Below, in pieces: positions 18,546 to 62,513 of a DNA stretch of 64,000 nucleotides. Position 1 is the stretch's first letter. Each line of letters opens with the position of its first letter. The stretch covers positions 57,734-121,733 of IMG/VR virus record IMGVR_UViG_3300020048_000044. One strand, 5' to 3'. Both the position numbers and the translations under genes were made by a program. Source of the DNA: a virus. Under the pieces are notes generated by a model. The model did no database searches and was not told where the DNA came from. It saw nothing but the letters and a program-made list of their open reading frames with translations.

Positions 18546-18619
18546 AGCTTATTAGTTCAATTGGTAGAACGCTAGAGCCGAAACTCTGGATGTTACGGGT
18601 TCGAATCCCGTATAAGTTT
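18546..18619 (+). tRNA. tRNA-like element with non-canonical 8-nt anticodon loop (GCCGAAAC); identity undetermined
   Basis: Acceptor AGCTTAT/ATAAGTT, D arm GTTC-AATTGGTA-GAAC, anticodon stem CTAGA/TCTGG, T arm ACGGG-TTCGAAT-CCCGT; no U33 and no encoded CCA. Confidence 0.8.
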
Positions 18620-18665
18620 CAACAAATGTTTTTTCATTGCATTTGTTATTCTGTATTTTAATGTT

Positions 18666-36533: not shown

Positions 36534-36686
36534 ATGAAAAGATATGCTCTAAAAACTAAAACTGGTGAAAAATTAGATTCAACAATTGCTACCGATTCAT
36601 TGGATGCGGCTGTTTATTTCTCATTAAGAAAAAAACTAGAACTAAATGATTTACTTGATATATTTATAATAGAAGAAATATTTTAA
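36534..36686 (+). CDS. 50-aa protein (not in ORF track)
   Basis: TATTTATA upstream at 36513. Confidence 0.55.
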   Translation: MKRYALKTKTGEKLDSTIATDSLDAAVYFSLRKKLELNDLLDIFIIEEIF

Positions 36687-36688
36687 CC

Positions 36689-37432
36689 ATGAAACAATAT
36701 ATCAAAGAAAGTCTTAGAAGACATTTAACTGAAAACGAACAAGTAACTGGCAAAAATCTAGCCGATGCTTTGAAGCAGTTTGGTTTAACAGATACAACTG
36801 CAACTGTTAATATTAGTAACGAAAAAACTGGTAAAGAAGATGTATTAACAGTAGTTGCTGATGAAAATGGCAATCTGAAAAAAGGTGGTTTAAAAGAAAT
36901 ATCGACACTAGGAAAAATAGTTATTAGTTGTGTTATAGCAGCAACAGGATTAGCTTCTTGTACCAAAGAAAATATGGGCTACAGCTATAATGCTAATGCT
37001 TTTAAAACCGAATATAAAAAAGGTGGAACACCAAATAAAACTATTGCAGTATATTCTGGCGGTAAGGTTAATTATTTTGATGTTGATACAATGAGACAAG
37101 TAAAAGCTGAACCATCAGCTATCAGTAGTGGTACATTATTAAAAGCAATACCATCACCACAAGAAGCAAAGATTTATTCATTAGGTTTTGATACTAGACA
37201 AGAAGCTGGTGTTGGTGTTCAATCTAACTCATACCTAGATTATAGCGTTGATAAATCGGATTTATATCAAGTAAGTGGGGATTATGGTGGTGAGCCAATT
37301 GATATATGGGAAGACCCAGCATTTATTGACGGTTTAAAATTTGCAGCATCTGACCCAGAATTTTTTAAATCTGAAACAGGTTTAGACCCACAAGAAATGT
37401 TATCAATATATGGAAAATATTTAAAAAATTAA
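36689..37432 (+). CDS. late protein with N-terminal leader and internal lipoprotein-signal-like segment
   Basis: MKQYIKESLRRHLTE; internal LGKIVISCVIAATGLAS-C. Confidence 0.8.
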   Translation: MKQYIKESLRRHLTENEQVTGKNLADALKQFGLTDTTATVNISNEKTGKEDVLTVVADENGNLKKGGLKEISTLGKIVISCVIAATGLASCTKENMGYSYNANAFKTEYKKGGTPNKTIAVYSGGKVNYFDVDTMRQVKAEPSAISSGTLLKAIPSPQEAKIYSLGFDTRQEAGVGVQSNSYLDYSVDKSDLYQVSGDYGGEPIDIWEDPAFIDGLKFAASDPEFFKSETGLDPQEMLSIYGKYLKN

Positions 37433-37494
37433 TTTTTTCTAGAAAATCAATATATTTATAAGTAAGATAATAAGAATAATTAAACCGTAAGAAT

Positions 37495-37686
37495 ATGTCA
37501 GACACAAAAAAAACAGTAAAAATCAAAGAAGCAGAACTTGTTGATTTAATCGATAACATCGTTAACGAAGCAGTTGCTGAGAAAAAGAAACAATGGTTAG
37601 CTGAACAAGCTACTTCATCTAAAACAGCTGTTTTAGAAGGTAAACTTGCTGCTTTAGAGGCTAAAATTAACAAACTTATTAAATAA
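37495..37686 (+). CDS. small coiled-coil late protein
   Basis: KIKEAELVDLIDNIVNE; TATTTATA at 37453. Confidence 0.8.
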   Translation: MSDTKKTVKIKEAELVDLIDNIVNEAVAEKKKQWLAEQATSSKTAVLEGKLAALEAKINKLIK

Positions 37687-37707
37687 GTTTAGTTCTAAAA
37701 TTAAATT

Positions 37708-37735
37708 AAAAGGTTGGGATTTCCCAACCTTTTTT
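37708..37735 (+). terminator. intrinsic terminator
   Basis: AAAAGGTTGGG-attt-CCCAACCTTTT. Confidence 0.8.
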
Positions 37736-37769
37736 GTTTACTTTAAAATGTTTTAGATTAATTTTACAT

Positions 37770-38858
37770 ATGGATAAATTAATAGAAAAATTAGAAAGAC
37801 TTTCAGAACCATTAACTGTTAGTGTTGATAGGGATGATTATATAAGTGCTAGTGAAAAAGCATTCGATTGTGAATTTGATGGAACTTCTAAATTTTATCC
37901 ATGGAAATTTCCAACTAAGATTCCAGAAAAGTTTAAGATTGGTGTTATTGTCGGTTCTTCTGGTTCTGGCAAATCAACCATTCTAAAAGAATTTGGAATA
38001 GAGGAAACGCCCATATGGGACCCAAATAAATCAATTGTTTCACACTTCGATTCACCAGATGATGCTATCAATAAATTAGGTAGCGTTGGGTTGAATTCGG
38101 TACCTTCTTGGTACAAGCCATATCACGTATTATCCAATGGTGAAAAATTCAGAGCTGATTTGGCCCGAAAGATAAAGACTGGTGCTGTTATAGATGAGTT
38201 TACAAGCGTTGTGGATAGGAATGTAGCTAAGGCGGCCAGCGTATCTTTATCTAGATACGTTAAGAATAATAAATTAGAAAATATTGTATTATCAACTTGT
38301 CATTATGATATTATTGATTGGTTGGAACCAGATTGGGTTTTGAATACAGATACAGGTGAATTACTTCACGGTTTTTTTTTTGTCCGACCAAAAATCGTTA
38401 TCGACATATATCGTACAAACTATGATAGTTGGGGAATGTTTAAAGACCATCACTATTTAAACGGAACAGTAAATAAAGCTTCTAGATGTTATATTGCAGT
38501 ATGGGAAGGCCAAGTAATTGGTTTCTTTGCTAGTATGACAATGCCTAATGGTGCGGTAAAGAATGGGTGGCGAGGACATAGGGTAGTAATACTACCAGAT
38601 TTTCAAGGACTTGGTGTTGGTGTAAGGTTTATAGATGCGATGGCCCAATTACATATAGATGATGGGTTAAGATTTTTTGCTAGGAGTGCTCACCCAAGGA
38701 TAATTAATTATCAAGAAAACTCACCATTGTGGAAGCCAACTAGTAAACATAAACGCTTACGTACAGATGTAACACATGAAAAAGTTTTTAATAATCATTT
38801 TGTTGATAATAAGAGATTATGTGGTAGTTTTGAGTATATTGGCGAAATTATTTTGTGA
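37770..38858 (+). CDS. ABC-type ATPase fused to GNAT acetyltransferase
   Basis: Walker A GSSGSGKST, LSNGEKFR signature, IDEF Walker B; GNAT motif RVVILPDFQGLGVG. Confidence 0.85.
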   Translation: MDKLIEKLERLSEPLTVSVDRDDYISASEKAFDCEFDGTSKFYPWKFPTKIPEKFKIGVIVGSSGSGKSTILKEFGIEETPIWDPNKSIVSHFDSPDDAINKLGSVGLNSVPSWYKPYHVLSNGEKFRADLARKIKTGAVIDEFTSVVDRNVAKAASVSLSRYVKNNKLENIVLSTCHYDIIDWLEPDWVLNTDTGELLHGFFFVRPKIVIDIYRTNYDSWGMFKDHHYLNGTVNKASRCYIAVWEGQVIGFFASMTMPNGAVKNGWRGHRVVILPDFQGLGVGVRFIDAMAQLHIDDGLRFFARSAHPRIINYQENSPLWKPTSKHKRLRTDVTHEKVFNNHFVDNKRLCGSFEYIGEIIL

Positions 38859-39528
38859 TGAATTCAAATAAACCTATGGTAATAAAACTACCATCAGCTG
38901 TTTTATAAGTATGATTTTCAATAACTCTCACCGAAGCTGACACATTGTTTAAGTTATGTTTTTGCATATATGAGGTTGAAGCGTTTGATTTAGCTAATTC
39001 AAGACCTAAAGATTGTGAAGACGTTTTACCTATTCCGAAAACTACGTTTTCGTTTGCTTTAGATTCCATTCTTGTTTTTGCTTGTGCGAATGTTTCAGCA
39101 TTAGGTGGTGCTAGAAATTCTTTTGGTGAATTATCTTGCTTATTGGTTACTTGTCCGATTGTATTACTAACCTTATCTTTTATTTTTTGAAATGGATTTT
39201 GTGCTTTGGCTGCATTCATTCCACCAAATGCTAAAGCACCACCTAATGCTGCTGTAGCTATGGTTTTACCAAATCCTTCATCAAGTGTTTTACCACCAAA
39301 AATAGATTCATAATCATCCATTGTTAAAGTTTTACCATTTTTTGATAATTCTATCATTTTTTCGGTTGCTTTATGTAAATCCATATCTGTTTTAGCATCT
39401 TCTTTAGAATATTCCATAACTCTTATTAGAAACGGGATATTCATTGATACTACATCGGCTGAATTATTATTTTTTTGTGCTGTTTCTCTAAGTAATTGTT
39501 TGATTAGAGATTTTCCTGTATGTTCCAT
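38848..39528 (-). CDS. late protein with leader and internal signal-peptide-like segment
   Basis: SLIKQLLRE; LDE-GFGKTIATAALGGALAFGGMNAAKA-Q. Confidence 0.8.
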   Translation of the reverse strand: MEHTGKSLIKQLLRETAQKNNNSADVVSMNIPFLIRVMEYSKEDAKTDMDLHKATEKMIELSKNGKTLTMDDYESIFGGKTLDEGFGKTIATAALGGALAFGGMNAAKAQNPFQKIKDKVSNTIGQVTNKQDNSPKEFLAPPNAETFAQAKTRMESKANENVVFGIGKTSSQSLGLELAKSNASTSYMQKHNLNNVSASVRVIENHTYKTADGSFITIGLFEFITK

Positions 39529-39541
39529 GATTATAATTTAT

Positions 39542-40447
39542 TTATTTTTTTTGTAATTTTTTAGCCCAATTAATTGATTTTATTACTGGTGTTAAAACAA
39601 ATGCTAAAACACTGATTATTTGTAGTCCAATAACAACATTTCCGAGAATTTTTTGAACAGTTTTTTGTTTAAACCATTTAACTATATCAATAGCGTTATT
39701 ACCAATAGTATTAAACCATTCTAAAATAGGTTTTATATCAAAAGTAGCTAGTGCTGAAAGTTCGAAATCTTTAAAACCAGCTAAAAAATTTGCTACTGCA
39801 TCTGTTAAGTTACTTAAAATATCTTTAAGACCAACTAATTCGTTACCAAAATTTACTAATTTTATTATAGTGTTATCATATAACCATTTAAGTAATGCGG
39901 CAAACCCCATTATAGAAATAAAGGTAAATAATCCGTCACCACTAGATAATTTATTGACTATGTTTTCTATTTTAGTTATTATATTATCAAAACCAGTTTT
40001 AAAATTTGTACTAGAAGCACCAATAAAACTAGTTATATTACCCCAAGCAGTTTTAATACTATTGAAAATGCCACTTAAAACACCTTTTATACTTTTCATA
40101 GCTGGTATCATAAACTCTGGATTTATCCATAAATCCCATATTAAAACAGCGGCATCCTTAAGCGTTGAGACATCTGTTACTACTTGAGTTATTTTTTCTT
40201 TAGTACCAGCAATCTTACCACCAATATAATTTCTTAATGTTTCACCGAATTTACTAACTTTTTCTTCTTCTTCAATAATTAATCGTCTAATTTCAAAAGA
40301 GATAGATTCATTTAATGGCACATCAATACCTAGTATATGCTTAATATATATTGGATTTTCAATCAGTGCTAATGATTCTAATGATAGGTTATTTCGTCTA
40401 TCATTAAGTAATAATTCTTCTTTTAAAAGTTGTCTAGTTGAAATCAT
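39542..40447 (-). CDS. multi-helix membrane-associated late protein
   Basis: TRQLLKEELL leader; several hydrophobic or amphipathic helices; track start is 40480. Confidence 0.75.
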   Translation of the reverse strand: MISTRQLLKEELLLNDRRNNLSLESLALIENPIYIKHILGIDVPLNESISFEIRRLIIEEEEKVSKFGETLRNYIGGKIAGTKEKITQVVTDVSTLKDAAVLIWDLWINPEFMIPAMKSIKGVLSGIFNSIKTAWGNITSFIGASSTNFKTGFDNIITKIENIVNKLSSGDGLFTFISIMGFAALLKWLYDNTIIKLVNFGNELVGLKDILSNLTDAVANFLAGFKDFELSALATFDIKPILEWFNTIGNNAIDIVKWFKQKTVQKILGNVVIGLQIISVLAFVLTPVIKSINWAKKLQKK

Positions 40448-40448
40448 T

Positions 40449-40850
40449 TTATTGGTATAACTCTGGGTGTAATTTCCCATATTTTCTTATTATTATTCCA
40501 GCAACAGCATTTGCTTCGTTTTCAATTGGACTACCATCTTCACCATCTTCGGCAATATTTAATAATCTATCTTCAATATTTTGTAAGTGATGAACAAGTT
40601 CATGTGCTATTGAACGACATACATCGATTATAGCTCTATCTTTAACATATATTTTAATGAATCCTTTAAGGTCATAATATGCAGTTGTAGTAAGGTCTGG
40701 TGTTCTTTCATATGCAAGAGCAACCTTAACATCATCTGTAATACCTAAATATTGTTTAGCAAAATTTACGAAGTCAGAAACAGTTCTAACATCGGTATCT
40801 TCTTTGGTGAGAAGTCTTTCCCTAAGAAGTTGTTTAATTATTGGTTTCAT
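40449..40850 (-). CDS. HExxH zinc-metallopeptidase-like protein
   Basis: MKPIIKQLLRERL leader; RSIAHELVHHLQ...ENEANAVAG. Confidence 0.65.
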   Translation of the reverse strand: MKPIIKQLLRERLLTKEDTDVRTVSDFVNFAKQYLGITDDVKVALAYERTPDLTTTAYYDLKGFIKIYVKDRAIIDVCRSIAHELVHHLQNIEDRLLNIAEDGEDGSPIENEANAVAGIIIRKYGKLHPELYQ

Positions 40851-41454
40851 TTGATAAGTCATAGTTTTTAAATCTATCTGATGGTTTGATTATCATAGTG
40901 TTAACGATTTTTCTCATGTTATATAGAACCATCATTGTTTCACCCCACCCAAAAGGATTATCAACCAATTCATAATCGATTCCATTATCAATATAAAATT
41001 GTCTTAGGAATTTAGTATTACTTGGTTTTATTGCTTTTTCATTAATTATTATATTATTAAAAATATAAGCTTTAATTTTATTTTCATTATTATATTTTTG
41101 TAATCTTTCGATTACAGTTTGTTTCATAGATGGTATAACATATGTTTTAATGAATTCCGTTACCGTACTAATATCTAATAGAGCATCGTTTAATTCTACC
41201 CCTTTTTCAACTGTAATTAGATATAATTTCCTACTACCTTTAGAATATTTCATAGCAGTATCATGGTGTGTGGTTAAATATAACCCTGGTCCATATTCGT
41301 ATCTACCATTTTTTTGTGAAATAACATCATTAAATTCATTAAGATTACCGCCATGCCAAAAATTCATAGTATTTGGAATATTTGGTGGTGTAATATAGTT
41401 TTCTTCTTTTTCAAGAAGTCTTTCCCTAACTAAATTTTTAATCTTATCTTTCAT
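40834..41454 (-). CDS. ADP-ribosyltransferase-fold protein (H-Y type)
   Basis: MKDKIKNLVRERL leader; FWHGG..YGPGLYLTT..AMKYS. Confidence 0.55.
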   Translation of the reverse strand: MKDKIKNLVRERLLEKEENYITPPNIPNTMNFWHGGNLNEFNDVISQKNGRYEYGPGLYLTTHHDTAMKYSKGSRKLYLITVEKGVELNDALLDISTVTEFIKTYVIPSMKQTVIERLQKYNNENKIKAYIFNNIIINEKAIKPSNTKFLRQFYIDNGIDYELVDNPFGWGETMMVLYNMRKIVNTMIIKPSDRFKNYDLSNETNN

Positions 41455-41499: not shown

Positions 41500-44016
41500 T
41501 TATTTTGTTTTAGGTGTTTTAGGTGGCTTAGCCGCTTTGATAACCAATTCGGTTTTTTCTTTATTCAAGGTGATATTAATTATTTCACCTTCACCTATTG
41601 TACCGTTTAGTATTTCATCAGCTACTGGGTCTTCAACGTAGTGTTGAATCGCTCTAGTTAATGGCCTAGCACCATATATTTCATCATAACCTTGTTCAGC
41701 TAAGAATTCAATTGCTTCTTCATTGATATTAAGCTTATAATTCATTTCACTAATACGTTTTTCAAGATTAGCAATTTCCAAATAAATTATTTTACCAATA
41801 TCTTCTTTTTTCAAACCATTGAAAACGATAGCTTCATCAATACGGTTAAGGAACTCTGGTCTGAATTTCTTTTTAAGAGCTTTTTCAATGATATCACGAC
41901 TTCTATTATCCTCAGAAAGAATACTAGCAGCAGTTTCAAATCCCATGTTTTTACCAAATGAATTAGCTTCTTTAACACCAATATTAGATGTAAGAATAAT
42001 AAGTGCATTCTTGAAGTTTACCTTACGTCCAAGACCATCGGTTAATTGTCCTTCATCAAGCATTTGTAATAAAAGATTATAAACATCATCATGTGCTTTT
42101 TCAATTTCATCAAATAAGATTACACAATGTGGTTTTCTACGCACTTTTTCAGTTAATTGACCGCCTTGGTCATAACCCACATAACCTGGAGGTGGACCAA
42201 TAAGTCTAGATACAGAATGTTTTTCCATATACTCTGACATATCCATTCTAATCAATGCATCTTTGTCACCAAAGATATGTTCAGCCAATAGCTTCGCAAA
42301 TAGCGTTTTCCCGACTCCTGTTGGACCCAAAAAGATAAATGAACCAACTGGCTTATTTTTATCTTTGATGCCTATACGGTTACGTTTAATAGCTTTAACG
42401 ACTTTGGTAACTGCTGAGTCTTGTCCAATAACCTTACCCATAAGTTCTTTATCCATATCCATAAGCTTTTTACTTTCTTGTGTAGATATTTTAGATAAAG
42501 GAATACCAGTCATCATTGAAACAACTTCTGAAATTATTTCAACACCAACGATAGTTACTTTTTTATCCAATTTATCTTGCCAATCACTTGTAGCGATTCT
42601 AAGTTCTTCTTCAACAGCTTTTTCAGCATCTCTTAATTCAGCAGCTTCTTCATATCGTTGTTTGATAACGACTTCTTTTTTCTTTTCGTTTATTTTTGTT
42701 TTTTTGGCTTCAAGTTCTTTGATAATTTCTGGTTTTTCAGTTGTTACATTGGTTGATGCACCAGCTTCATCTAATACGTCAATAGCTTTATCTGGCATAG
42801 CTCTTTCCATAATATATCTAGCCGAAAGCTTAACACATTCTTCAATTGCTTCATCAGTATATTTAACCTTATGATGTGCTTCGTATTTATCCTTAATGTT
42901 AGTAAGAATAGCTTTGGTTTCATCCAACGTTGGTTCTTCAACAAGAATTTGTTGGAAACGTCTAGTTAATGCACCATCTTTTTCAATGTTTTCACGATAT
43001 TCATCAAGTGTAGTAGCACCAATGATTTGGAGTTCTCCACGAGCCAATGCTGGCTTGAATATATTTGATGCATCTAGCGAACCAGAAGCATTTCCAGCAC
43101 CTATAATAGTATGTAATTCATCAATGAATAAGATTACATCTGGGTTAGCTTTACATTCTTCTAATACAGCTTTCATTCTTTCCTCGAATTGGCCACGGTA
43201 TTTGGTACCAGCGACTATTGAAGCTAGGTCAAGAGTAAAGATTCTTTTACCAGCAAGAGTTCTAGAAGCTTCACCGTCTTTGATAAGCTTAGCAAGACCT
43301 TCAACAATGGCAGTTTTACCCACACCTGGCTCACCTATAAGAACTGGGTTATTTTTTTTCCTACGTGATAGGATTTGAGAAATACGTTTTATTTCTGGTA
43401 GTCTACCAATAACTGGGTCTAATTCACCTTTTTCAACTGCCTTAGAAATATCTCTACAGAAATTATCTAAAACTGGCGTTTTGCTTTTGGTTTCATTTTG
43501 TTTTGGTTTCTTTTTAAATGATTCATTTTCTTCAATGTCATCATTTTCAAAAGCACCATTTGTTGAGTCTTCTTTCATCGTGTTTTTAAATCTGTCATAT
43601 GTTATTCCATAATAATTGAGAAATTCATTTATATGGGCTTTAGACGCTAAAATAGCTAACATGATATGCGTTGTATCAATCATATTATCATTTAATTTTT
43701 CACACTCAGAATCAACTAGCTTCATAATAGCTTTAGTTTCATCAGAAAATGGTAGTCTTCTACTACTAATTGATGGGACTCTTGGTGTTAAGTCAGTCTT
43801 TCTAATGAAGTCACACATTCTATCGTATAGGTCATTTATATCGATACCGATACTAAATTTTTTTAAAACCTTAACACATTCATTATCACCATCTGTTAAT
43901 ATTGATAGGATAATATGTTCTGGTTTTACCTTTACATCGTCAAAATACTTAGCTTCTTTGATAGATTGGGTCATTATTATTTTAACCTTAGGGTAAATTT
44001 CTCTATTCATACTCAT
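41500..44016 (-). CDS. clpC: ClpC-type AAA+ chaperone / Clp protease ATPase subunit
   Basis: Clp N-repeats, GEPGVGKT, IDELH, UVR-like QRYEEAAELRD, GPTGVGKT, LFDEIEKAH, MGF loop, RPEFLNR, GARPL. Confidence 0.93.
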   Translation of the reverse strand: MSMNREIYPKVKIIMTQSIKEAKYFDDVKVKPEHIILSILTDGDNECVKVLKKFSIGIDINDLYDRMCDFIRKTDLTPRVPSISSRRLPFSDETKAIMKLVDSECEKLNDNMIDTTHIMLAILASKAHINEFLNYYGITYDRFKNTMKEDSTNGAFENDDIEENESFKKKPKQNETKSKTPVLDNFCRDISKAVEKGELDPVIGRLPEIKRISQILSRRKKNNPVLIGEPGVGKTAIVEGLAKLIKDGEASRTLAGKRIFTLDLASIVAGTKYRGQFEERMKAVLEECKANPDVILFIDELHTIIGAGNASGSLDASNIFKPALARGELQIIGATTLDEYRENIEKDGALTRRFQQILVEEPTLDETKAILTNIKDKYEAHHKVKYTDEAIEECVKLSARYIMERAMPDKAIDVLDEAGASTNVTTEKPEIIKELEAKKTKINEKKKEVVIKQRYEEAAELRDAEKAVEEELRIATSDWQDKLDKKVTIVGVEIISEVVSMMTGIPLSKISTQESKKLMDMDKELMGKVIGQDSAVTKVVKAIKRNRIGIKDKNKPVGSFIFLGPTGVGKTLFAKLLAEHIFGDKDALIRMDMSEYMEKHSVSRLIGPPPGYVGYDQGGQLTEKVRRKPHCVILFDEIEKAHDDVYNLLLQMLDEGQLTDGLGRKVNFKNALIILTSNIGVKEANSFGKNMGFETAASILSEDNRSRDIIEKALKKKFRPEFLNRIDEAIVFNGLKKEDIGKIIYLEIANLEKRISEMNYKLNINEEAIEFLAEQGYDEIYGARPLTRAIQHYVEDPVADEILNGTIGEGEIINITLNKEKTELVIKAAKPPKTPKTK

Positions 44017-51611: not shown

Positions 51612-51709
51612 ATACTATAAAACAAACACTTAAAAGGGCCAATTGGCCCTTTTGTTGTTTACACTAATCATTTTTCCAGTATTTTGGTATATTTATAAGA
51701 AAAAAGATT

Positions 51710-53503
51710 ATGTTAACAACTAATGAAATATTCAAAGAATATGTTAAATGCCTAACGAGTCCAATATATGCTATTGAGACTTATCTAGAAACATTTGACA
51801 AAACGCAAGAAGGTTTTGTACCTTTTAGACTTTTTCCAAGACAGAAAGAAATTATACACGCATATGAATTACATAGATTTAATTTAGTAACTAAACCTAG
51901 ACAGGCTGGTGTATCAACTACAACTGCTGCTTATATGTCAATCAAGGTAGGATTTGCGGATGAACAAAACCCAGAAGCAGTTCTAATCATCGCTAATAAA
52001 CAAGAGTTAGCTTTCGAGTTCTTAGCTAAGATTAAAGACTTTTTAGCACAATTACCAAGATGGGTTTGGGGTCATGAATACTATGGCAACGAAAAAAATG
52101 AATCTAAATCAATATTCCTTACTGACTCTAAAAAAGAAATTAAATTACCTAATGGTAGTCGTGTTAAAGCGGTTGCAACATCTAAGGATGCGTTAAGAGG
52201 TTTTACACCTACTTATCTTGTAATGGATGAGGCTGCATATATTGATAATGGTGATGAAGTATTTGGTGCTGCTTTAACAGCGTTAGGTACTGGGGGTAAA
52301 GCTACTCTAATCTCAACACCAAAAGGTATGGATAAATTATATTACAAAACATACGACCAAGCTAAACAAAAGAAAAACAATTTCAATATCATTGAAATGA
52401 AATGGTATGAAGACCTTAGATACAATAAAGATTTAAGATGGTATAAAGGGGACGAAGTTATTGTTGAAACTGAATTTACATTTGATTCTTATAACAGAAT
52501 GGTAGCTGATGGCTATAAACCAACATCTTCATGGTATGAAGAAATGTGTTTAGGTATGAATAATGATGCTAAGATGATTGCACAAGAATTAGATGTATCG
52601 TTTGTAGGTTCTGGTGGTAATGTAATCAATGATGAGTATATAGATTTCCAAGTTAAAAATAACGTAATGGAACCAAAGTTCACTTATGGTGTTGAAAATG
52701 AAATTTGGGTTTGGGAAGAACCACAAGATGGCCATCAATATGTAATGGGCGTTGACGTTTCGAGAGGTGATGGTGAGGATGCTTCAACAATGGTAATAGT
52801 AGATTTTACAACGATGGAACAAGTAATGGAATATCAAGGTAAGATACAACCAGATTTACTTGCTCAAATAGTGGAAGAATACGGCAATTTATACAAGGCT
52901 TATACCGTAGTTGATATAACTGGTGGTATGGGTGTTACAACTGTCTTAAAACTGCTAGAATTCGATTATAAGAGGTTACATTATGATAGTGTTGGTGGCA
53001 AGATTCTTTCGGCTAGACAAAGAGAATTAACATCGCATTTTAAGGACACAAAAACTCCAGGTTTTCAAGCAACCAATGTTCGTCTTCCGATGATTGCTAA
53101 TTTAGAATTTAAAATTAGAACCAATGGTATTAAAGTACGTTCAGTTAGATTAACCTCTGAAATGAAAACTTTTATTTACAAGAATGGCCGTCCAGACCAT
53201 CAAGACGGATATCATGATGACTTATTAATGTCATTGGGTATGGCTTTATGGGTTGTAGAACATTCATTTAAAAACTTAGAAAAATTAGAAAAACAAAACA
53301 AAGCTATTTTAAATGCTTGGTTAGGTAGTGCTAACGCACAAAAAACACAAGAAGAACTTAATCTAGAAACTGGTAGCGGTTTTGTTCCTAAAGATAGTAG
53401 AAATAAGGCAGCATTGCCAAAGCCAAAATTTAGCCCTACAGTAGCAAAAAATATGCAAGACCCAACTGGTCAATACTTATGGTTATTTAGCGGTTCAAAA
53501 TAA
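51710..53503 (+). CDS. terminase large subunit (T4 gp17-like)
   Basis: KPRQAGVST Walker A, LVMDEAA Walker B, LISTP.G, GVDVSRG, DDLLMS nuclease. Confidence 0.95.
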   Translation: MLTTNEIFKEYVKCLTSPIYAIETYLETFDKTQEGFVPFRLFPRQKEIIHAYELHRFNLVTKPRQAGVSTTTAAYMSIKVGFADEQNPEAVLIIANKQELAFEFLAKIKDFLAQLPRWVWGHEYYGNEKNESKSIFLTDSKKEIKLPNGSRVKAVATSKDALRGFTPTYLVMDEAAYIDNGDEVFGAALTALGTGGKATLISTPKGMDKLYYKTYDQAKQKKNNFNIIEMKWYEDLRYNKDLRWYKGDEVIVETEFTFDSYNRMVADGYKPTSSWYEEMCLGMNNDAKMIAQELDVSFVGSGGNVINDEYIDFQVKNNVMEPKFTYGVENEIWVWEEPQDGHQYVMGVDVSRGDGEDASTMVIVDFTTMEQVMEYQGKIQPDLLAQIVEEYGNLYKAYTVVDITGGMGVTTVLKLLEFDYKRLHYDSVGGKILSARQRELTSHFKDTKTPGFQATNVRLPMIANLEFKIRTNGIKVRSVRLTSEMKTFIYKNGRPDHQDGYHDDLLMSLGMALWVVEHSFKNLEKLEKQNKAILNAWLGSANAQKTQEELNLETGSGFVPKDSRNKAALPKPKFSPTVAKNMQDPTGQYLWLFSGSK

Positions 53504-53809: not shown

Positions 53810-55894
53810 ATGGCAGACAATAAAAATTTAACAATATTTCAAAAATTAGGTCAAGTTCTTGGTCCAGATGGTTTTAAACAAAAACCACAAACTCAAACAC
53901 AAAGATATAATATCGGAAATGGTGAACTTCTTAAAACAGATAACAAGGCTGAATATGAAAGAGCTAAGTTACAAGCACAACAAAATAAATATTTAGGTCA
54001 AACTTGGAAGAAGGTTGAAAATGGTTTATTCCAACAATCAATCAATTATGAAACAACACGTGTTGGTTCATATGCCGATTTTGAAGCGATGGAGTTCTAC
54101 CCAACAATAGCAGCCGCTTTGGATGTTATGATGGAAGAATCAACTACGCTTAATGACCAAGGTAGAATGCTTAATGTTTACTCAGATAGTAAAAGAGTTA
54201 AAGGTATATTAGAAGACCTATTTTTTAATAGACTTGATTTACATACATCATTACCAATGTTTACTAGAAATACTTGTAAATATGGTGATAATTTTGTGTA
54301 TTTAAACATCGATGAAAAGAACGGTATAGTAGGTGCAAAACAAATGCCTAATTATGAAATGGAACGCAGAGAAAGCGGTTTATTTGATATGATTTCTGGT
54401 AGAGATACTGTTAGAGATGAAGATGATAAAAATGGTGCTGATAAGGTTAAATTCTTTTGGAGAGGTCGTGATGTTGAATTTAATTCATGGCAAATTGCTC
54501 ACTTTAGATTATTAGGTGATGATAGACGTTTACCTTATGGTACATCAGTTCTAGAAAAATCTAGACGTGTTTGGAAACAATTATTGTTATCTGAAGATTC
54601 AATGCTTGTTTATCGTGTAACTCGTGCCCCAGAAAGACGTGTTTATAAAATATATGTTGGTAATATTGCAGATGATGATGTTGAAGCATACGTAAATGCA
54701 ATTGCCGATAGGTTTAAACGTATGCCTATCGTTGACCCTAAGACTGGCCAAATGGATTTAAGATTTAATCAACTTTCAAATGACCAAGATTATTTTATCC
54801 CAGTAAGAACTGAAGATGCCCCAAACCCTATTGATACACTTCCAGGTGCCAGTAACTTAGACCAAATAGCTGATATCGAATATCTTAGAAGTAATTTATT
54901 TACATCATTAAGAGTACCTAAGCCATTCTTAGGGTTTGATGAAGCGAATGGTGATGGTAAAAACTTAGCATTACAAGATATTCGTTTTGCAAGAACTATT
55001 AACAGAATACAACAAGCTATGTTACAAGAGCTTAATAAAATAGCTATTATACATTTATACATTCTTGGTTTTGATGAAGATTTAGATAATTTTACACTTA
55101 CACTTAATAATCCATCAACACAAGCTGAAATGCTTAAGATTGAGCACACACAAACCAAAGTTACTTTATTCAAAGATGCAACTAGTGATATTGGAAATGG
55201 TTTTGCGGCTATGTCAATGACACGTGCACACAGAGAAATATTTGGTTGGTCTGATGATGAAATCAAACAGGATTTACTTGAACAACGTATGGAAAAAGCA
55301 GCTGCGGCTGAATTGGCCAACACTGGTAATGTTATTAAACATACTGGTATGTTTGATGTTGTTGATAGAATCTATGGTGATTATCAACTTGCTCTTAACG
55401 GTGGTGCTGCTGGTGAAGGTGGTGCTGCATCTGCTGAAGGCGAAGGTGGCGGTGCCACTGGTGGTGGAGGCGGTGGCGGTTCATTCGGTGGAGGTGGCCT
55501 AGGTGGTGAAGATTTAGATTTTGGTGGTGAAACTGAAGGTGAAGCTGAAGGTGGTACTGAGGCTGGTGCTGAAGGTGGTGCTGAGCTTGGTGGAGAAGCT
55601 GGTGCTGAAACTGAACCAGCGGCAACAGAAACCGCACCAGCAGAAACTGAACCAGTAGCTGAAACAGTTAGAAAAGCCGAAAAATTATTAACAGAACAAA
55701 AAAAGATATTAACTAAAAAAATAGAAGAAAGAAATAAGAAATATCAGAACAGATTTGTTGATTTACTAGTGGAGTCGGTAAAACCTAAAAATGAGAATAA
55801 AGACGAAAAAACAAAAATATACGACAAGAATATTAAGATAAATAAAGAAATCAATAGCATGATTAGTGATATTGACAAAATCTTAGAGGAATAA
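53810..55894 (+). CDS. portal protein (T4 gp20-like)
   Basis: PYGTSVLE..RRVWKQL.L.ED.MLVYRVTRAPERRV; DYFIP; L..SLRVPK; Gly/Glu-rich tail. Confidence 0.93.
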   Translation: MADNKNLTIFQKLGQVLGPDGFKQKPQTQTQRYNIGNGELLKTDNKAEYERAKLQAQQNKYLGQTWKKVENGLFQQSINYETTRVGSYADFEAMEFYPTIAAALDVMMEESTTLNDQGRMLNVYSDSKRVKGILEDLFFNRLDLHTSLPMFTRNTCKYGDNFVYLNIDEKNGIVGAKQMPNYEMERRESGLFDMISGRDTVRDEDDKNGADKVKFFWRGRDVEFNSWQIAHFRLLGDDRRLPYGTSVLEKSRRVWKQLLLSEDSMLVYRVTRAPERRVYKIYVGNIADDDVEAYVNAIADRFKRMPIVDPKTGQMDLRFNQLSNDQDYFIPVRTEDAPNPIDTLPGASNLDQIADIEYLRSNLFTSLRVPKPFLGFDEANGDGKNLALQDIRFARTINRIQQAMLQELNKIAIIHLYILGFDEDLDNFTLTLNNPSTQAEMLKIEHTQTKVTLFKDATSDIGNGFAAMSMTRAHREIFGWSDDEIKQDLLEQRMEKAAAAELANTGNVIKHTGMFDVVDRIYGDYQLALNGGAAGEGGAASAEGEGGGATGGGGGGGSFGGGGLGGEDLDFGGETEGEAEGGTEAGAEGGAELGGEAGAETEPAATETAPAETEPVAETVRKAEKLLTEQKKILTKKIEERNKKYQNRFVDLLVESVKPKNENKDEKTKIYDKNIKINKEINSMISDIDKILEE

Positions 55895-55937: not shown

Positions 55938-56708
55938 ATGAAAAATTTTGGTAAAATAAATAATATTTTTAATTTCACATTAGCTGAAGGTATGGTTTCT
56001 AAAAACGATAATACTAAATTATTGTTTAAGAATTATATTAAGGCTATTAAAGAAAATGTAATATTAAGAACACAATTTTTAGTGTATGATAACATTGAAA
56101 ATATGGTTGAAGAAAATGAGTTTAAAGCAACACAGTTTGTTCAAGAAAACATTGCACTTATGTCTAAGTTTTCAAAAAAAGATATATTAGAAGCAAATGC
56201 TAACTTAGTTAAACCAGTGTTATCAGAACAAGCTATTAGCTACGAAAAAGAAACATTACACGAAAATATAGCTAAATTAATCTTTGCTAAAAAAAGTGCT
56301 AAAAACATCAATGAAATGATTGATTGCACTAGTAAGATTGTTGAATATATAAAATCGAATAAAGAAAAAGAAATAATTGAAACAATTGATTTACCCATGA
56401 GTATGTTATCGACTATAATGGTTGATAAATACAACGAAAAATACTCAGAACTTAGTGAATCTGAACGTAAAATGCTTAAGGTACTTATTGAATCAACTGA
56501 AGAAGAAAAGAAAAACATTTATTCTATAACAATTAGAGAATGTATTGATTTGATTGATAGTAAGTTTAAAACAGCTGATTTAGATTCAAAAGACAGACTA
56601 TTACGAGTTAAGGATAAATTGTTAAATGATAAAATAGAAATAGATGAAAATTTTACAAATAACCTTTCCAAATTAGTAGAACTTAAGGAAACTTTATTGG
56701 AGGGATAA
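55938..56708 (+). CDS. helical hypothetical head-module protein
   Basis: TATTTAT at 55917. Confidence 0.85.
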   Translation: MKNFGKINNIFNFTLAEGMVSKNDNTKLLFKNYIKAIKENVILRTQFLVYDNIENMVEENEFKATQFVQENIALMSKFSKKDILEANANLVKPVLSEQAISYEKETLHENIAKLIFAKKSAKNINEMIDCTSKIVEYIKSNKEKEIIETIDLPMSMLSTIMVDKYNEKYSELSESERKMLKVLIESTEEEKKNIYSITIRECIDLIDSKFKTADLDSKDRLLRVKDKLLNDKIEIDENFTNNLSKLVELKETLLEG

Positions 56709-56956: not shown

Positions 56957-57289
56957 ATGGCTGATGAATGGGGTGATTACAGCAAATTAGTTCTAAAAGA
57001 GTTAGAACGTTTGAATGAAAATTACGATAAAATGAGAACTGATATGGAAGTTAAGTTTAATGAACTTAATCAAAAAATCACCGAAGTAAAAAATATTGAA
57101 GGTAAAGTATTAAGTAATTCTGCTTGGATTGAAAAAGTAACGGAAGTTTGGTCACCAACTCAAATGAAAGAAGCTAAAGATGAACTATATAGACAAAAAA
57201 GTCGTTGGGTTGCAGCTATTGCTATTATTTCTGCTATTCAAATTCTTGTAGGTGTTGCTATTTCTGCTTGGAGTGCTTTTGGAAAGTAG
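56957..57289 (+). CDS. coiled-coil protein with C-terminal TM helix
   Basis: Coiled coil then WVAAIAIISAIQILVGVAISAW. Confidence 0.75.
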   Translation: MADEWGDYSKLVLKELERLNENYDKMRTDMEVKFNELNQKITEVKNIEGKVLSNSAWIEKVTEVWSPTQMKEAKDELYRQKSRWVAAIAIISAIQILVGVAISAWSAFGK

Positions 57290-57831: not shown

Positions 57832-57868
57832 GTTTTCCTAACATATTTATATCTATAAGGAATTAATT

Positions 57869-58594
57869 ATGGACATAAATTATAAAGATTTTAAAGTATT
57901 AAAGCGTGGAGAAACTGGCTGGGGTGGTTTAATCGAACACGATGCTGGTTATATTAGTCCAGACGAGCCTAGAAATCTACCATTCATCAATGAGATGAAA
58001 AAATTAGAAGGTGGTAACAGATTATCAATCGTTGAACCACTTATTGTATATGTTGTATTACAAAAATATAACATTCTTAATCGTAATGGTAGAATTTACC
58101 CAGAAGCCATTCTTAGAAGACAAAATGAATTATACCAAAGAGCTATTAGAGAACGCTCAGCAATAGGTGAATTAGACCATCCAGAATCTAGTGTTATTTC
58201 TGGTGATAGAATTTCACACAATATTATCGAAACATGGTGGGAAGGCCATACATTGATGGGTAAGATGGAAATCTTAATGACCCCAGGTTACATCAATTAT
58301 GGTATTGTATCAACCAAAGGTGATAATGTTGCCGACCTATTAAGACACAGAATTAAAATTGGTGTTTCTTCAAGAGGTGTTGGTTCACTTAAAGAAGGTA
58401 GAAATGGCGAACAAATAGTACAAGACGATTTCGAAATAATTTGTTGGGATGTTGTTACAGCACCCTCAACGCCAGATGCTTGGATAGGTAGAACCCGTGA
58501 AGAAATGGCACCTTATGTAGAAAGTTTTGAAATACATAAACCGATAATAACAGAAAATTTAAATACTAAACTCGATAAATTTTTATTAGATTAA
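57869..58594 (+). CDS. prohead protease (T4 gp21-like)
   Basis: NRNGRIYP, GELDHP, GVSSRGVGS, WDVV..PSTPDA. Confidence 0.93.
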   Translation: MDINYKDFKVLKRGETGWGGLIEHDAGYISPDEPRNLPFINEMKKLEGGNRLSIVEPLIVYVVLQKYNILNRNGRIYPEAILRRQNELYQRAIRERSAIGELDHPESSVISGDRISHNIIETWWEGHTLMGKMEILMTPGYINYGIVSTKGDNVADLLRHRIKIGVSSRGVGSLKEGRNGEQIVQDDFEIICWDVVTAPSTPDAWIGRTREEMAPYVESFEIHKPIITENLNTKLDKFLLD

Positions 58595-58719
58595 TTGTTT
58601 TTTTTTAATTATTTTCATCTAAAAATGATTTTTCGAAAAATAAGATATATTTATTAAGAAATGAGGTATTTACCTTGAGTATATTTATAATATAAATAAA
58701 ACTAAACCAAAAAAATAAA

Positions 58720-60033
58720 ATGGCTGAAAAAAAATCAATACTTACAGAAGCATTACTAGATATCAAAAATATCCAGTCTGCTTTAAATGCCAACACAAAA
58801 GAAATACTTCGTAGCGTAGCTAGAGAAGAAATTAATAGTGTGGTGAAAGAATCGATTCTTGAAAAAGAAAATGATTTTGAAGAAGAGGATTTAGATTCAA
58901 CTGACGGTGGTGTAGAATTAGGTGGTGATGCTGATGCAGCATCTGCTGATTTGTCAACTGAGTTAGGTGGAGAAGAATCAACGGATGATGAGTTAGCTGG
59001 ACTTGAAGGCTCTGAAGAAGTGGCACCAGAAATGGGCTCAGAAATGGGAACAGAAATGGCACCAGAATTAGGAATGGACGCTGATGCGTTAGGTGGAGAC
59101 GAAATGGACATGACAGCAGCATCTGATGATGACGTAATCGCAATTTACAAAAAACTATCTGGCGAAGACGAAATCGAAATCGTAGGTGACGAAATTCACT
59201 TAACAATATCAGAACCTGGACAATACATTGTAAAAACTAACGACACATCTGCTCCAGTTGGTGGTGACCTTGATGTTGATTCACTAGAACCTATGGGTAT
59301 CGAAGGTGAAGAAGGCATGGGTGACGAACTTGGTGGTGAAATGGGTGATGAAGAAGGTGCTGAATATGAAATTGAAATGGGTGATGACGAAGAAGCTGGC
59401 GAAGAAGATGCAGAAGGTGCTGAACACGAAGCTGGTGAAACAAAACCATTTGAAGCTGGTGAAGAATCAGAAGAAGATGAAGAAGAACCTAAAGAAGATG
59501 AATTAGACGAAAACTTAGCACAAACTAGAGGTGCTGAAAAACATGCTGGTAGATATACCGCAGCTTCTAAAAATCCAAAACCTTTAGAGGAATCAATCAA
59601 AGCAAAACAATTAGTTTCTGAAACTGCAAAGAAATATAATACTTTATTAACTGAAGCAAAAAAACTTAAGACCGAAAATGATGAATTCAGAGGTGCACTT
59701 AAAGAATTTAGAACTAAGTTAGTAGAAACTGTAGTATTCAATAGTAATCTTACTTATGTTACAAGATTATTCATGGAACATGCTACAACAAAAGGTGAAA
59801 AACAAAACATTATTAAACGTTTTGATGAAGAAGTTTCTAACCTTAAAGAATCAAAAAAACTTTACAAAACTATTGCTAATGAATTGGATACAAGAAAACC
59901 AATTAATGAAACTTTAGAAAATAAATTTAGCAAGGGTATAACTACAAGTACTTCTAAACAATTAAACGAAAGTACTGCGTATATTGACCCTTCTGTTCAA
60001 AGAATTAAAGATTTAATGAACATCAAAAAATAA
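58720..60033 (+). CDS. prohead core / scaffolding protein (gp22-like)
   Basis: Highly acidic low-complexity middle, C-terminal coiled coil, located between protease and MCP. Confidence 0.8.
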   Translation: MAEKKSILTEALLDIKNIQSALNANTKEILRSVAREEINSVVKESILEKENDFEEEDLDSTDGGVELGGDADAASADLSTELGGEESTDDELAGLEGSEEVAPEMGSEMGTEMAPELGMDADALGGDEMDMTAASDDDVIAIYKKLSGEDEIEIVGDEIHLTISEPGQYIVKTNDTSAPVGGDLDVDSLEPMGIEGEEGMGDELGGEMGDEEGAEYEIEMGDDEEAGEEDAEGAEHEAGETKPFEAGEESEEDEEEPKEDELDENLAQTRGAEKHAGRYTAASKNPKPLEESIKAKQLVSETAKKYNTLLTEAKKLKTENDEFRGALKEFRTKLVETVVFNSNLTYVTRLFMEHATTKGEKQNIIKRFDEEVSNLKESKKLYKTIANELDTRKPINETLENKFSKGITTSTSKQLNESTAYIDPSVQRIKDLMNIKK

Positions 60034-60063: not shown

Positions 60064-61893
60064 ATGTCACATTTATTAACATCTGGACAAGTTGGAAATA
60101 TCGGTATGAACCATATGAAAGCTATCCGTTTAGAAACACAATCAAAATGGGATTCATTAGGATTCCTTGAAGGTCTTAGAGGCCACGTAAAAGAAAATGT
60201 TGCTCAGTTATATGAAAACCAAGCTACAACATTATTAAACGAAGCTACAACAGCTACTAACTCTGGTTCTTTCGAAACAGTTGTTTTCCCTATTGTACGT
60301 AGAGTTTTCTCTAAATTACTTGCTAATGACATCGTGTCAGTACAAGCTATGAACATGCCAATTGGTAAATTGTTCTTCTTCGTTCCTCAAACATCTAGCC
60401 GTTACGATAGTGCTGGTGTTGGTGACGCTGCTTATGGTAGCAATTATGATGCAAACGGTGGTAATGGTGCATATGGTACAACATATTCAGCTCATACATC
60501 AATGGCTTCAACTGGTCTTCCATCATGTGTACAATCTAATTGTGCTGTAACAACAATGCAAGCTAAAAACTTATATGACGCATTTTACAATGACGGTCTA
60601 TTTGATAACTCTAAAGGTACTCTTACAATTCAAGTTGGTGGATACGCTGCATACGCATTAGGTAATAACGGTCAATACACAACTGTAGTTGGTGCTACTC
60701 CAGTAGCTACTGCAACTGACGGTTCTGTTAGAAGTTTAATTATCGGTGTATCTGGTTTCTCTAAAAACGTATCTACTAATGGTAGAGAAGTTATGACAGG
60801 TGCTGATGGTAATAACATGGATACTGAATCTTTCTTAGCTTCATTACATGTTATCACTACAACTGGTGTTAAAGATGCTGATAACCAAACAATCATCGAA
60901 GCTGGTAAAGAAATTCCTTTCCGTTTAGTTACACAACAATATGGTAAAGGTATCGTTTCTGGTAGCCAAGCTTTAACTGATGGTACTGGTGTTTGTTACT
61001 TAGAATTAGACTTACGTCACCCAGCTGTTACAACTAAAACTTATGACGGTTATATCGGTGCTTCTGCAACAACTGTAAGTGCTTTAACTACTGACCTTGG
61101 TTTAGCTGTTGCTTGGGCTGAATACGCTTCATTAGAACTTGAAACTGAAATGGGAGAAGTATCTTTCAAATTAGACGAAGTTGTTGTTTCTGTTGAAGAA
61201 AGAAAATTACGTGCTACATGGTCTCCAGAGCTTGCTCAAGACGTTAGTGCATTCCACAATATTGACGCTGAAGCTGAATTAACAGCAATGTTATCAGAAC
61301 AAGTTGCTGCTGAAATTGACCGTGAAATCCTTAGAGATTTACGTAAAGCTGCTGCATGGCAATTACGTTGGGATTACAATGGTTGGAGAAAAGCTTCTAC
61401 AACTGCTAGTCCTTATACACAAAAAGAATGGAATCAAACTCTTATCACTAGAGTAAACCAAACTTCTGCTCAAATCCATAAAACTACACTTAGAGGTGGT
61501 GCTAACTTCATCGTTGTATCTTCTGAAATCAGTGCTATCTTTGACGATTTAGAGTATTTCCACGTATCTGACGCTAATCCAGAACAAGATAACTACAACA
61601 TGGGTATTGAAAGAATCGGTACTTTAAGTGGACGTTACCAAGTGTACCGTGACCCTTATGCACCAGCTTACTCTATCATCATTGGACACAAAGGTAAATC
61701 ATTGCTTGACACTGGTTACATCTACGCTCCATACGTTCCATTACAATTAACTCCAACGATGTACAATCCGTTCAACTTCGCTCCAGTTAAAGGTATCATG
61801 ACACGTTACGCTAAAAAAATCGTCAATAACCGTTTTTACGGACATGTAAGAGTTGATGGCGTACCAACGTTTAACCCAAATGAATTAAGATAA
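60064..61893 (+). CDS. major capsid protein (T4 gp23-like)
   Basis: VAQLYENQ, VRRVF..LAN.IVSVQ.M..PIG, RKLRATWSPE.AQD, EIDREI, YAPYVPL, IMTRYA. Confidence 0.96.
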   Translation: MSHLLTSGQVGNIGMNHMKAIRLETQSKWDSLGFLEGLRGHVKENVAQLYENQATTLLNEATTATNSGSFETVVFPIVRRVFSKLLANDIVSVQAMNMPIGKLFFFVPQTSSRYDSAGVGDAAYGSNYDANGGNGAYGTTYSAHTSMASTGLPSCVQSNCAVTTMQAKNLYDAFYNDGLFDNSKGTLTIQVGGYAAYALGNNGQYTTVVGATPVATATDGSVRSLIIGVSGFSKNVSTNGREVMTGADGNNMDTESFLASLHVITTTGVKDADNQTIIEAGKEIPFRLVTQQYGKGIVSGSQALTDGTGVCYLELDLRHPAVTTKTYDGYIGASATTVSALTTDLGLAVAWAEYASLELETEMGEVSFKLDEVVVSVEERKLRATWSPELAQDVSAFHNIDAEAELTAMLSEQVAAEIDREILRDLRKAAAWQLRWDYNGWRKASTTASPYTQKEWNQTLITRVNQTSAQIHKTTLRGGANFIVVSSEISAIFDDLEYFHVSDANPEQDNYNMGIERIGTLSGRYQVYRDPYAPAYSIIIGHKGKSLLDTGYIYAPYVPLQLTPTMYNPFNFAPVKGIMTRYAKKIVNNRFYGHVRVDGVPTFNPNELR

Positions 61894-61961: not shown

Positions 61962-62513
61962 ATGAAAACACTAATACAAAAGTTATTAAGGGAGGGTTTA
62001 TTTGATGATTTTGATTTTCCAGAAGCCAAAAAAGAAAATCACGGTAAAGTTATTAAAAATGAATCTAAATATAAATTCATCACTATGACTTTGTATAGGG
62101 GTATTAAAAATGAAAAAGAATTAATTGATAATCATAACGGAACTTATACAATTATCAATAAACATGAGGGTAGAGATAATAATTTTATTTGGTTCACCAA
62201 TAATGAAAGTTTTGCTTTAGATTATTCTGAGTTTGCATTGTTAACTTATCCATTAGAAGTTGCTAAACATAAAAAAATAATAACATATGAAGATGGTTAC
62301 GTAAAGGAAGAAAATACTTTCATTGGTGAAGTTGAGTCGGCTTATGGTCGTGGCGTAATAGATTCTGACCCAACTAATGATTCACCAATATATGGTAATA
62401 TAGAATTACCACCAAATTGGTATTTTTCTTATAAAGCACAAAAACATATTGTTTGCAATAAAGATTTAATAATTAAACGTGAAAATCTAACATTACGTGA
62501 TGAAATAGAATAA
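61962..62513 (+). CDS. late protein with leader and possible ART-like fold
   Basis: MKTLIQKLLREGL; TLYRG..IWFT...FALDYS. Confidence 0.6.
   Translation: MKTLIQKLLREGLFDDFDFPEAKKENHGKVIKNESKYKFITMTLYRGIKNEKELIDNHNGTYTIINKHEGRDNNFIWFTNNESFALDYSEFALLTYPLEVAKHKKIITYEDGYVKEENTFIGEVESAYGRGVIDSDPTNDSPIYGNIELPPNWYFSYKAQKHIVCNKDLIIKRENLTLRDEIE

Follow-up and report, generated by a model that had tools for sequence, protein, structure and literature searches.

Candidate export signals behind protease-type sites in two predicted late pro-proteins of a T4-like jumbo phage

Two open reading frames (ORFs) of a viral contig from IMG/VR (record IMGVR_UViG_3300020048_000044) have been analyzed, each encoding a protein in which a segment resembling a bacterial export signal lies in the interior of the chain, directly after a hydrophobic-x-Glu (h-x-E) site of the type cut by T4-like prohead proteases. 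The window, that is, the whole 64-kb stretch of DNA considered here, forms the right-hand part of this 121.7-kb contig, with G+C content of about 30%. The contig completeness is estimated as 34% by CheckV, which suggests that it comes from a jumbo phage. ORF A (247 residues) is located at 36689-37432 on the plus strand, and ORF B (226 residues), at 38848-39528 on the minus strand. The initial annotation of the window had reported L-x-E sites followed by signals in both proteins, and the coordinates and residues given there are exact.

The order of elements in ORF A (all coordinates on the plus strand) is leader, small N-domain, h-x-E site, lipoprotein-type signal and mature domain. Residues 1-15 (36689-36733) form an amphipathic leader resembling the capsid-targeting sequence (CTS) of T4, with IKE at positions 5-7 and LTE at 13-15; leaders of the same type are present in the ORF A homologues. 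Residues 18-60 (36740-36868) constitute a small domain resembling SSURE repeats, composed in the AlphaFold2 (AF2) model of a helix (21-30) and a beta-hairpin (strands 37-44 and 49-57). It is followed by LKE at residues 68-70 (36890-36898), the candidate prohead-protease site with the invariant Glu70. The next 21 residues (71-91; 36899-36961) contain one Lys (Lys76) in the n-region, an uncharged h-region core of 13 residues, and the sequence G-L-A-S-Cys91 with the lipobox L-A-S-Cys91; the mature domain, residues 92-247 (36962-37429), starts with T-K-E. The Kyte-Doolittle hydrophobicity maximum of ORF A falls at residues 71-89.

This segment agrees with the lipobox rule, [LVI][ASTVI][GAS]-Cys preceded by an uncharged h-region and a basic n-region. 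Lipoprotein signals sit at the N-terminus, with Cys within approximately the first 15-35 residues (PROSITE PS51257), and in this respect the ORF A precursor deviates, as its lipobox Cys is residue 91, and in the long forms of the family it is found at 384-497. A cut after Glu70 would place the Cys at position 21, and only then would the signal be N-terminal. No ATG, GTG or TTG codon occurs within residues 55-76 of ORF A, while the sole internal ATG near the signal of ORF B is Met70, which lies within a conserved module and would yield an acidic n-region. Hence, the internal position of the signals does not result from mis-called starts, and alternative starts giving ordinary N-terminal signals were rejected for both ORFs, as no canonical start codon fits. 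Reading the Ser-Cys junction of ORF A as that of an intein or Ntn-hydrolase was also rejected, since the intein matches have template modelling (TM) scores of 0.1-0.15 and the domain is too small.

The mature domain of ORF A, modelled as part of the whole chain and not alone, is predicted with high confidence (the predicted local distance difference test value is about 90 for residues 98-247), and a helix is predicted at 68-88 with low confidence. Comparison with the Protein Data Bank (PDB) identified no solved fold matching the mature domain (best Foldseek E 0.18, VIA Z below 5). The N-domain is similar to repeats of two LPXTG surface proteins of Gram-positive bacteria (phmmer E 2e-9 and 2e-4), and scores below the cut-off of the Pfam SSURE family (PF11966; 14.2 bits vs 25, E 0.038); for this similarity, both homology and convergence are conceivable.

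Close relatives of ORF A were found neither by word-based protein search, nor by a pattern scan of IMG/VR based on ORF A alone, nor among GenBank phages. Exhaustive HMMER search yielded 17 relatives, and a pattern scan, 16 IMG/VR loci. The resulting family is phage-only and comprises 24 aligned members with 19-30% identity to ORF A. The layout is constant in all 24: a leader, a helix-plus-hairpin domain of approximately 45 residues, a hydrophobic-x-Glu site, a hydrophobic segment with the lipobox, and a mature domain. Glu70, Cys81, Gly87, Ser90 and Cys91 are invariant (24/24). Position 70 is always occupied by Glu and never by Asp, and the P3 residue (two positions before Glu70) is L, I, V or M in 20 of the 24 members.

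The Lys at position +3 from the lipobox Cys is 96% conserved in the family. The lipoprotein export signal (LES) of Capnocytophaga and Flavobacterium is C-x-K-(D/E)2, with the consensus C-Q-K-D-D-E and Lys present in 72% of cases (PMC5080379). Compared to it, most family members have Asp or Glu at +4, and only some have both +4 and +5 acidic, ORF A itself having C-T-K-E-N. The Cys-x-Lys-(acidic) start of the predicted mature part shows some resemblance to the Bacteroidota LES.

The best-conserved part of ORF A is the segment 77-91, with the mean frequency of the top residue equal to 0.74, compared to 0.44 in the mature domain. As the hydrophobic segment is conserved better than the rest, the signal of ORF A is not vestigial, and the capture of a host secreted gene with a decaying signal, considered in the initial annotation as the alternative explanation, does not apply to this protein. 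Invariant residues among 24 homologues at such low identity exclude chance, and the alignment indicates that Glu70 and the signal are under strong selection in this family. Cys81 (36929-36931), also invariant, is situated ten residues before the lipobox Cys, within the hydrophobic core and outside any lipobox context.

ORF B (minus strand throughout) has the same general order, namely, leader, conserved module, h-x-E site, signal peptidase I (SPI) type signal and a domain with an LPP20-like fold. The leader, residues 1-15 (39484-39528), ends with LRE at 13-15. The module, residues 20-80 (39289-39471), has the core P-L-F-I-R-x-L-E-Y-A-K-E-D-A-K-T-D-M-D-L-H and 16 invariant columns, and is found in 57 IMG/VR loci and more than 3,108 proteins of a large protein collection, including those on jumbo-phage contigs of up to 375 kb. 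It has no match in Pfam, PHROGs or PDB, and is absent from GenBank phages except two 735-kb metagenomic records. It occurs by itself or joined N- or C-terminally to many unrelated partners; some of the short proteins with this module end C-terminally in an R-M-x-x-L-A-G motif.

The LDE of ORF B, residues 82-84 (39277-39285), is the candidate protease site, and its position after the module is conserved in the family. A hydrophobic-x-Glu is found at +6 to +22 from the conserved Tyr of the module, mainly at +9 to +12, in 26 of 29 non-redundant IMG/VR relatives, compared to 8.3 +/- 2.4 in composition-preserving shuffles, and in 70 of the 112 best database matches. In about half of cases, a second such site lies 10-15 residues ahead of the module. 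Directly after LDE comes the SPI-type signal, residues 85-109 (39202-39276), with G-F-G-K (Lys88), an Ala/Gly-rich hydrophobic core at approximately 89-101, and A-K-A at 107-109 followed by Gln110. This agrees with the A-x-A rule and with the Bacteroidota Q-rule, Gln at +1 after the SPI cleavage (PMC5837995), and Gln is found directly after the canonical SPI signal in two other proteins of the same phage. As in ORF A, the signal of the precursor is not N-terminal, starting at residue 85. The initial annotation had described these segments as a lipoprotein signal in ORF A and a Sec/SPI signal in ORF B, and both indeed look like genuine Bacteroidota export signals.

The mature part of ORF B, residues 110-226 (38851-39201), looks LPP20-like in residues 140-226, which is a fold of exported proteins. 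The structural neighbours of this region in the ESM Atlas are LPP20 clusters (TM 0.52-0.59), and the top match of an unbiased VIA search is Helicobacter pylori Lpp20 (5ok8_A; 82 residues aligned with a root-mean-square deviation of 3.5) at Z 6.7, a middling value below the caution line of Z 8. Foldseek matches are weak (best E 0.03-0.05), and no match to the LPP20 family (PF02169) is observed at E <= 0.1. The known LPP20 proteins are lipoproteins, unlike ORF B with its SPI-type signal. For the last 147 residues, neither word-based protein search nor GenBank phages yielded sequence relatives.

ORF B may be a recent fusion. According to this explanation, which concerns ORF B only, a mobile module was placed before a complete secreted-protein gene, and the signal is a by-product, either vestigial or used for direct export. 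A signal-like segment after the module is present only in ORF B among the 112 relatives examined, its C-terminal part lacks detectable sequence relatives, and the module is joined promiscuously to many unrelated partners, all of which agrees with a fusion. It accounts less well for an intact ORF with a textbook A-x-A-Gln site and a family-typical h-x-E exactly at the junction; moreover, the ORF A family demonstrates that the same layout can be kept by selection. We consider this explanation rather unlikely, and it is the form in which the vestigial-signal alternative is retained for ORF B. Conservation in homologues, proposed in the initial annotation as a check, is split between the two proteins: the ORF A layout is constant in its family, whereas the ORF B signal is absent from the 112 module relatives examined, though the position of its h-x-E site is family-conserved.

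The canonical secreted proteins of this phage have signals ending before Gln, or lipoboxes. According to the Q-rule, these ordinary signals fit a Bacteroidota host, and the host is probably a member of this phylum. The internal h-regions are less hydrophobic than those of all six canonical signals of the genome: the best 10-residue Kyte-Doolittle value is 2.65 for ORF A (family mean 2.51) and 1.78 for ORF B, compared to 3.0-3.16 in the canonical ones. This fits an avoidance of co-translational targeting. In a genome-wide scan, the only internal lipobox match was that of ORF A.

An amphipathic leader ending with h-[RK]-E at residues 7-15 is shared by ORF A, ORF B and four further ORFs of the window, namely the gene that follows the capsid gene and the three that precede ORF B in its operon. 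The operon starts with a weakly ADP-ribosyltransferase-like protein (40834-41454, minus strand), followed by a protein with an HExxH motif (40449-40862, minus strand) and a tape-measure-like protein of 312 residues with two C-terminal hydrophobic segments (39542-40480, minus strand), and ends in ORF B; the fourth further leader-bearing ORF, at 61962-62513 on the plus strand, directly follows the major capsid protein gene. The C-terminal parts of these proteins are unrelated. Head-module proteins (the scaffold candidate and the ORF at 55938) also begin with segments of 10-17 residues ending with L-x-E. Two leader types can be distinguished, h-h-R-E-E-h-x-x-x-L-[KR]-E and E-E-F-x-R-M-x-K-L-A-G-h-h-x-E, which occur both N-terminally and at internal junctions between modules of longer proteins.

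In T4, the prohead protease gp21 cuts after L/I-x-Glu, with Asp not tolerated there, and a 10-residue N-terminal CTS is sufficient for foreign proteins to be packaged in the head (PMC9026906). Propeptides of approximately 10-15 residues ending with L/I-x-Glu and common to unrelated proteins are just what is observed in ORF A, ORF B and the four other ORFs of the window. The window also contains a T4-type head module: the large terminase TerL (51710-53503), the portal (53810-55894), a gp21-like prohead protease of the Peptidase_S77 family (57869-58594, plus strand; E 1.6e-24, 86.9 bits vs the cut-off of 27), a scaffold candidate (58720-60033) and a gp23-like major capsid protein (60064-61893). 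The Peptidase_S77 protein is a candidate enzyme for the h-x-E sites. An S77 protease is also encoded in a complete 171.7-kb genome and a 142-kb contig carrying ORF A homologues (G026 and G027), as well as in the three most complete contigs with the ORF B module, the remaining contigs being fragments. For the protease-type sites proposed in the initial annotation, sequence comparison supports the conservation of Glu as hydrophobic-x-Glu in both families and the presence of a suitable protease gene.

The ORF A gene is preceded, 20 nucleotides ahead of its ATG, by the promoter-like motif TATTTATA (36661-36668, plus strand), the core of ATATTTATA. In the genome, 22 of 42 occurrences of ATATTTATA fall within the 60 nucleotides upstream of genes, which make up about 6% of the sequence space, the motif being located 4-34 nucleotides upstream of 22 genes. 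These include TerL, the prohead protease, the scaffold candidate, ORF A, the first gene of the ORF B operon and several leader-bearing genes; examples of further sites are 51690-51697, 57844-57851 and 58682-58689. ATATTTATA is a candidate late promoter; it reads as the reverse or complement orientation of the T4 motif TATAAATA. The T4 late promoter TATAAATA itself was tried and is not significantly enriched (30 observed vs 20.8 +/- 3.9).

Adjacent to the four-gene operon, on its upstream side, is a gene for a ClpB/ClpC-type Hsp100 ATPase of 838 residues (41500-44016, minus strand) with Clp_N, two AAA+ domains and ClpB_D2-small, which could handle capsid cargo or ejected proteins. Its position directly upstream of four leader-bearing genes would fit another function of the leaders, that they are recognition sequences for a different machine, such as a ClpB/ClpC-type unfoldase or a modifying enzyme, the h-x-E then not being prohead-protease sites. 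A terminator-like hairpin and a separate promoter-like motif lie between the ATPase gene and the operon and part the two; moreover, the leaders match the T4 CTS in length and end with h-x-Glu, and head-module proteins start with segments of the same kind. Given this, we regard recognition by another machine as improbable.

The interpretation that we favour, with a probability of about 40%, is that ORF A and ORF B encode late pro-proteins of modular build in a T4-like jumbo phage, serving as capsid cargo with buried export signals; in other words, the capsid of this phage may be loaded with envelope proteins that are ready for export. The leader and the pro-domain would load the precursor into the prohead core, and the prohead protease would then cut after the leader, after Glu70 of ORF A or Glu84 of ORF B and, in proteins that have them, at C-terminal junctions. 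The capsid would thus hold a signal peptide of approximately 21-25 residues joined to the mature domain. After ejection, the unfolded pre-protein would be taken post-translationally by Sec and processed by Lgt/LspA (ORF A) or signal peptidase I (ORF B), so that a phage protein would be in the envelope of the next host before any phage gene is expressed. The specific prediction for ORF A, that the injected pre-lipoprotein is exported, lipidated and perhaps surface-exposed by the Sec/Lgt/Lsp/LES systems of the new host before phage transcription, is more tentative than the general interpretation. Packaging, cutting, masking and export after injection are steps that we infer beyond the sequence pattern. 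The interpretation given in the initial annotation is supported in part, by the CTS-like leaders common to unrelated proteins, by the promoter-like motif shared with head genes, and by leader motifs found downstream of the signal.

The latter come from relatives of ORF A with additional modules, the strongest discriminators being in-frame leader fusions, downstream leader motifs and Glu at the module boundary. In L065 (8822-10786) and L060, the chain begins with a repeat protein bearing a leader and continues in frame into an ORF A homologue that keeps its own leader, now approximately 400 residues into the chain. In L063 (10001-11299) and P0013, a second leader-type motif, E-F-x-R-M-x-K-h-A-G-I-I-x-E, and a further domain are situated C-terminally to the signal and the mature domain. 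All four family members that continue past the conserved W-[IV]-x end carry Glu at this boundary, compared to none of five close relatives ending there. Moreover, L075 contains the cassette of the N-domain, Glu and signal followed by a mature domain that is unrelated. A Pfam search with the extra modules of the family yielded nothing useful.

Leader motifs located C-terminally to the signal do not fit easily with a precursor exported by the producing cell itself: the motif and the attached modules would then be carried to the periplasm, out of reach of the factor that recognizes this motif on dozens of cytoplasmic proteins. The arrangement would be explained more simply by a polyprotein processed within a single compartment at each h-x-Glu boundary, and this processing would free a "signal peptide plus envelope domain" as a discrete product.

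Direct export in the producing cell is nevertheless the second-ranked explanation after capsid cargo, possible, though in our view unlikely. The internal segment would act as a signal-anchor (N-in, C-out), with Lgt/LspA or signal peptidase I freeing the envelope domain, while the leader and the pro-domain would remain cytoplasmic, being either degraded or retained as a fragment that is anchored in the membrane and has a function of its own, and the conserved Glu would be structural. Internal signals are generally known to function in bacteria, the positive charges are on the N-side of the ORF A segment (four Lys in residues 64-76), and the strongly conserved h-region with its small-xxx-small spacing (Cys81, Ala85, Gly87 and Ser90) would suit a transmembrane helix that persists and interacts with partners; the phage also encodes numerous ordinary lipoproteins and other secreted proteins. 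Apart from the junctions and modules dragged into the periplasm, this explanation does not account for Glu that is invariant and never replaced by Asp, with a hydrophobic P3, for a leader common to soluble enzymes, for N-terminal extensions of approximately 400 residues of repeated domains in L060 and L065, and for the low hydrophobicity compared to the genome's own signals.

Another explanation retains packaging and cutting as in the capsid-cargo interpretation, the difference being that the exposed hydrophobic N-terminus is a membrane-insertion element acting during ejection, and not a Sec signal. It could form a channel, provide an anchor at the entry site or associate with an early membrane compartment, similarly to the membrane-active peptides of animal viruses unmasked at maturation. 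The ejection proteins of T7 and P22 and adenovirus protein VI are precedents, and in the latter, as in the gamma peptide of nodaviruses, the maturation protease of the capsid uncovers a hydrophobic segment at the N-terminus of an internal capsid protein, and this segment acts on the membrane of the next cell. The operon neighbour at 39542-40480 also joins a leader, a tape-measure-like region and hydrophobic segments, and according to a preprint, injected proteins of jumbo phages associate with a lipid compartment (bioRxiv 10.1101/2024.03.24.586471). Membrane insertion leaves unexplained the invariant lipobox Cys, Ser at -1 and Lys at +3 matching the Bacteroidota LES in ORF A, and the A-x-A followed by Gln together with the LPP20-like exported fold in ORF B; unlike the peptides of adenoviruses and nodaviruses, which disrupt membranes directly, the segments observed here bear the marks of Sec and signal peptidase II (SPII) or SPI processing. 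We rate it the least probable of the explanations considered. The similarity of the protein encoded at 39542-40480 to tape-measure proteins is weak, as is that to baculovirus PEP_C; with ORF A and ORF B, this member of the ORF B operon brings the candidates for membrane-active cargo to three.

Several observations weigh against capsid cargo with buried signals. Genome-wide, signal-like segments after h-x-E are not in excess: in a crude scan they follow 13 of 663 sites, compared to 427 of 23,872 control positions, the detector also giving false SPI calls on P-loops. The conservation of the ORF A h-region, including the second invariant Cys81, exceeds the needs of a generic signal peptide, and, given the common ancestry of the homologues, the counts cannot be treated as independent. 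In ORF B, the fusion is unique, and Lys residues at +6, +8 and +10 past the predicted cut are not ideal for Sec export. Internal signal-anchors function in bacteria, e.g., the H2 segment of leader peptidase, so masking of the signal needs special pleading. Finally, a capsid may carry too few copies of such a cargo for some functions in the envelope.

The closest known system is that of T4, where the CTS and internal proteins processed by gp21 (IPI-III and Alt) provide the same combination of a short propeptide ending with L/I-x-Glu on unrelated proteins and an S77 protease in the same genome, and where the cargo is also diverse, including an ADP-ribosyltransferase-like protein. Unlike T4, whose cargo is soluble and cytoplasmic, the new feature here is a second conserved Glu site, a predicted cut site, directly before a complete SPII or SPI signal; moreover, the pro-part adds a folded module to a tag of ten residues, and packaging and cleavage are predictions here. 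At the C-prM junction of flaviviruses, an internal signal sequence is flanked on its cytosolic side by a cleavage site of the viral protease, and the cut made there controls the events at the signal, with the difference that this happens at the eukaryotic endoplasmic reticulum, the signal is already inserted co-translationally, and no capsid delivers the protein to a new cell. Phage lipoproteins for the host envelope are exemplified by Llp of T5 and Cor of phi80 and N15, with plausible roles in exclusion or receptor masking. Unlike ORF A, these have ordinary N-terminal signals, are made in the infected cell, and lack a pro-domain, a protease site and a leader. A limited literature search identified no paper pairing a lipobox with injected or internal head proteins.

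To our knowledge, every injected phage protein described so far functions in the cytoplasm or forms the ejection channel. If the capsid-cargo interpretation is true, a phage can use proteins made beforehand to remodel the envelope of a cell that it has just infected, the capsid cargo being a Sec substrate and the viral maturation protease, a switch that turns on a buried export signal; possible uses are superinfection exclusion, receptor masking and wall remodelling. The ORF A cassette of a small domain, an invariant Glu and a conserved lipobox segment is compact and directly testable. Explaining the ORF B module, with protease-type sites on both sides and more than 3,100 proteins without annotation, would shed light on a large portion of the unannotated proteins of jumbo phages. 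Should the conservative explanation hold, these proteins would still form an uncommon group of lipoproteins, whose cytoplasmic pro-regions are long and conserved.

Two other features of the window deserve mention. A protein of 110 residues encoded between the portal and prohead-protease genes (56957-57289, plus strand) has an L-K-E site at the N-terminus and a transmembrane segment at the C-terminus, and with this combination it could anchor the assembling prohead to the membrane. At 18546-18620 on the plus strand, ARAGORN predicts a tRNA-like gene, the two-base anticodon of which it leaves undetermined.

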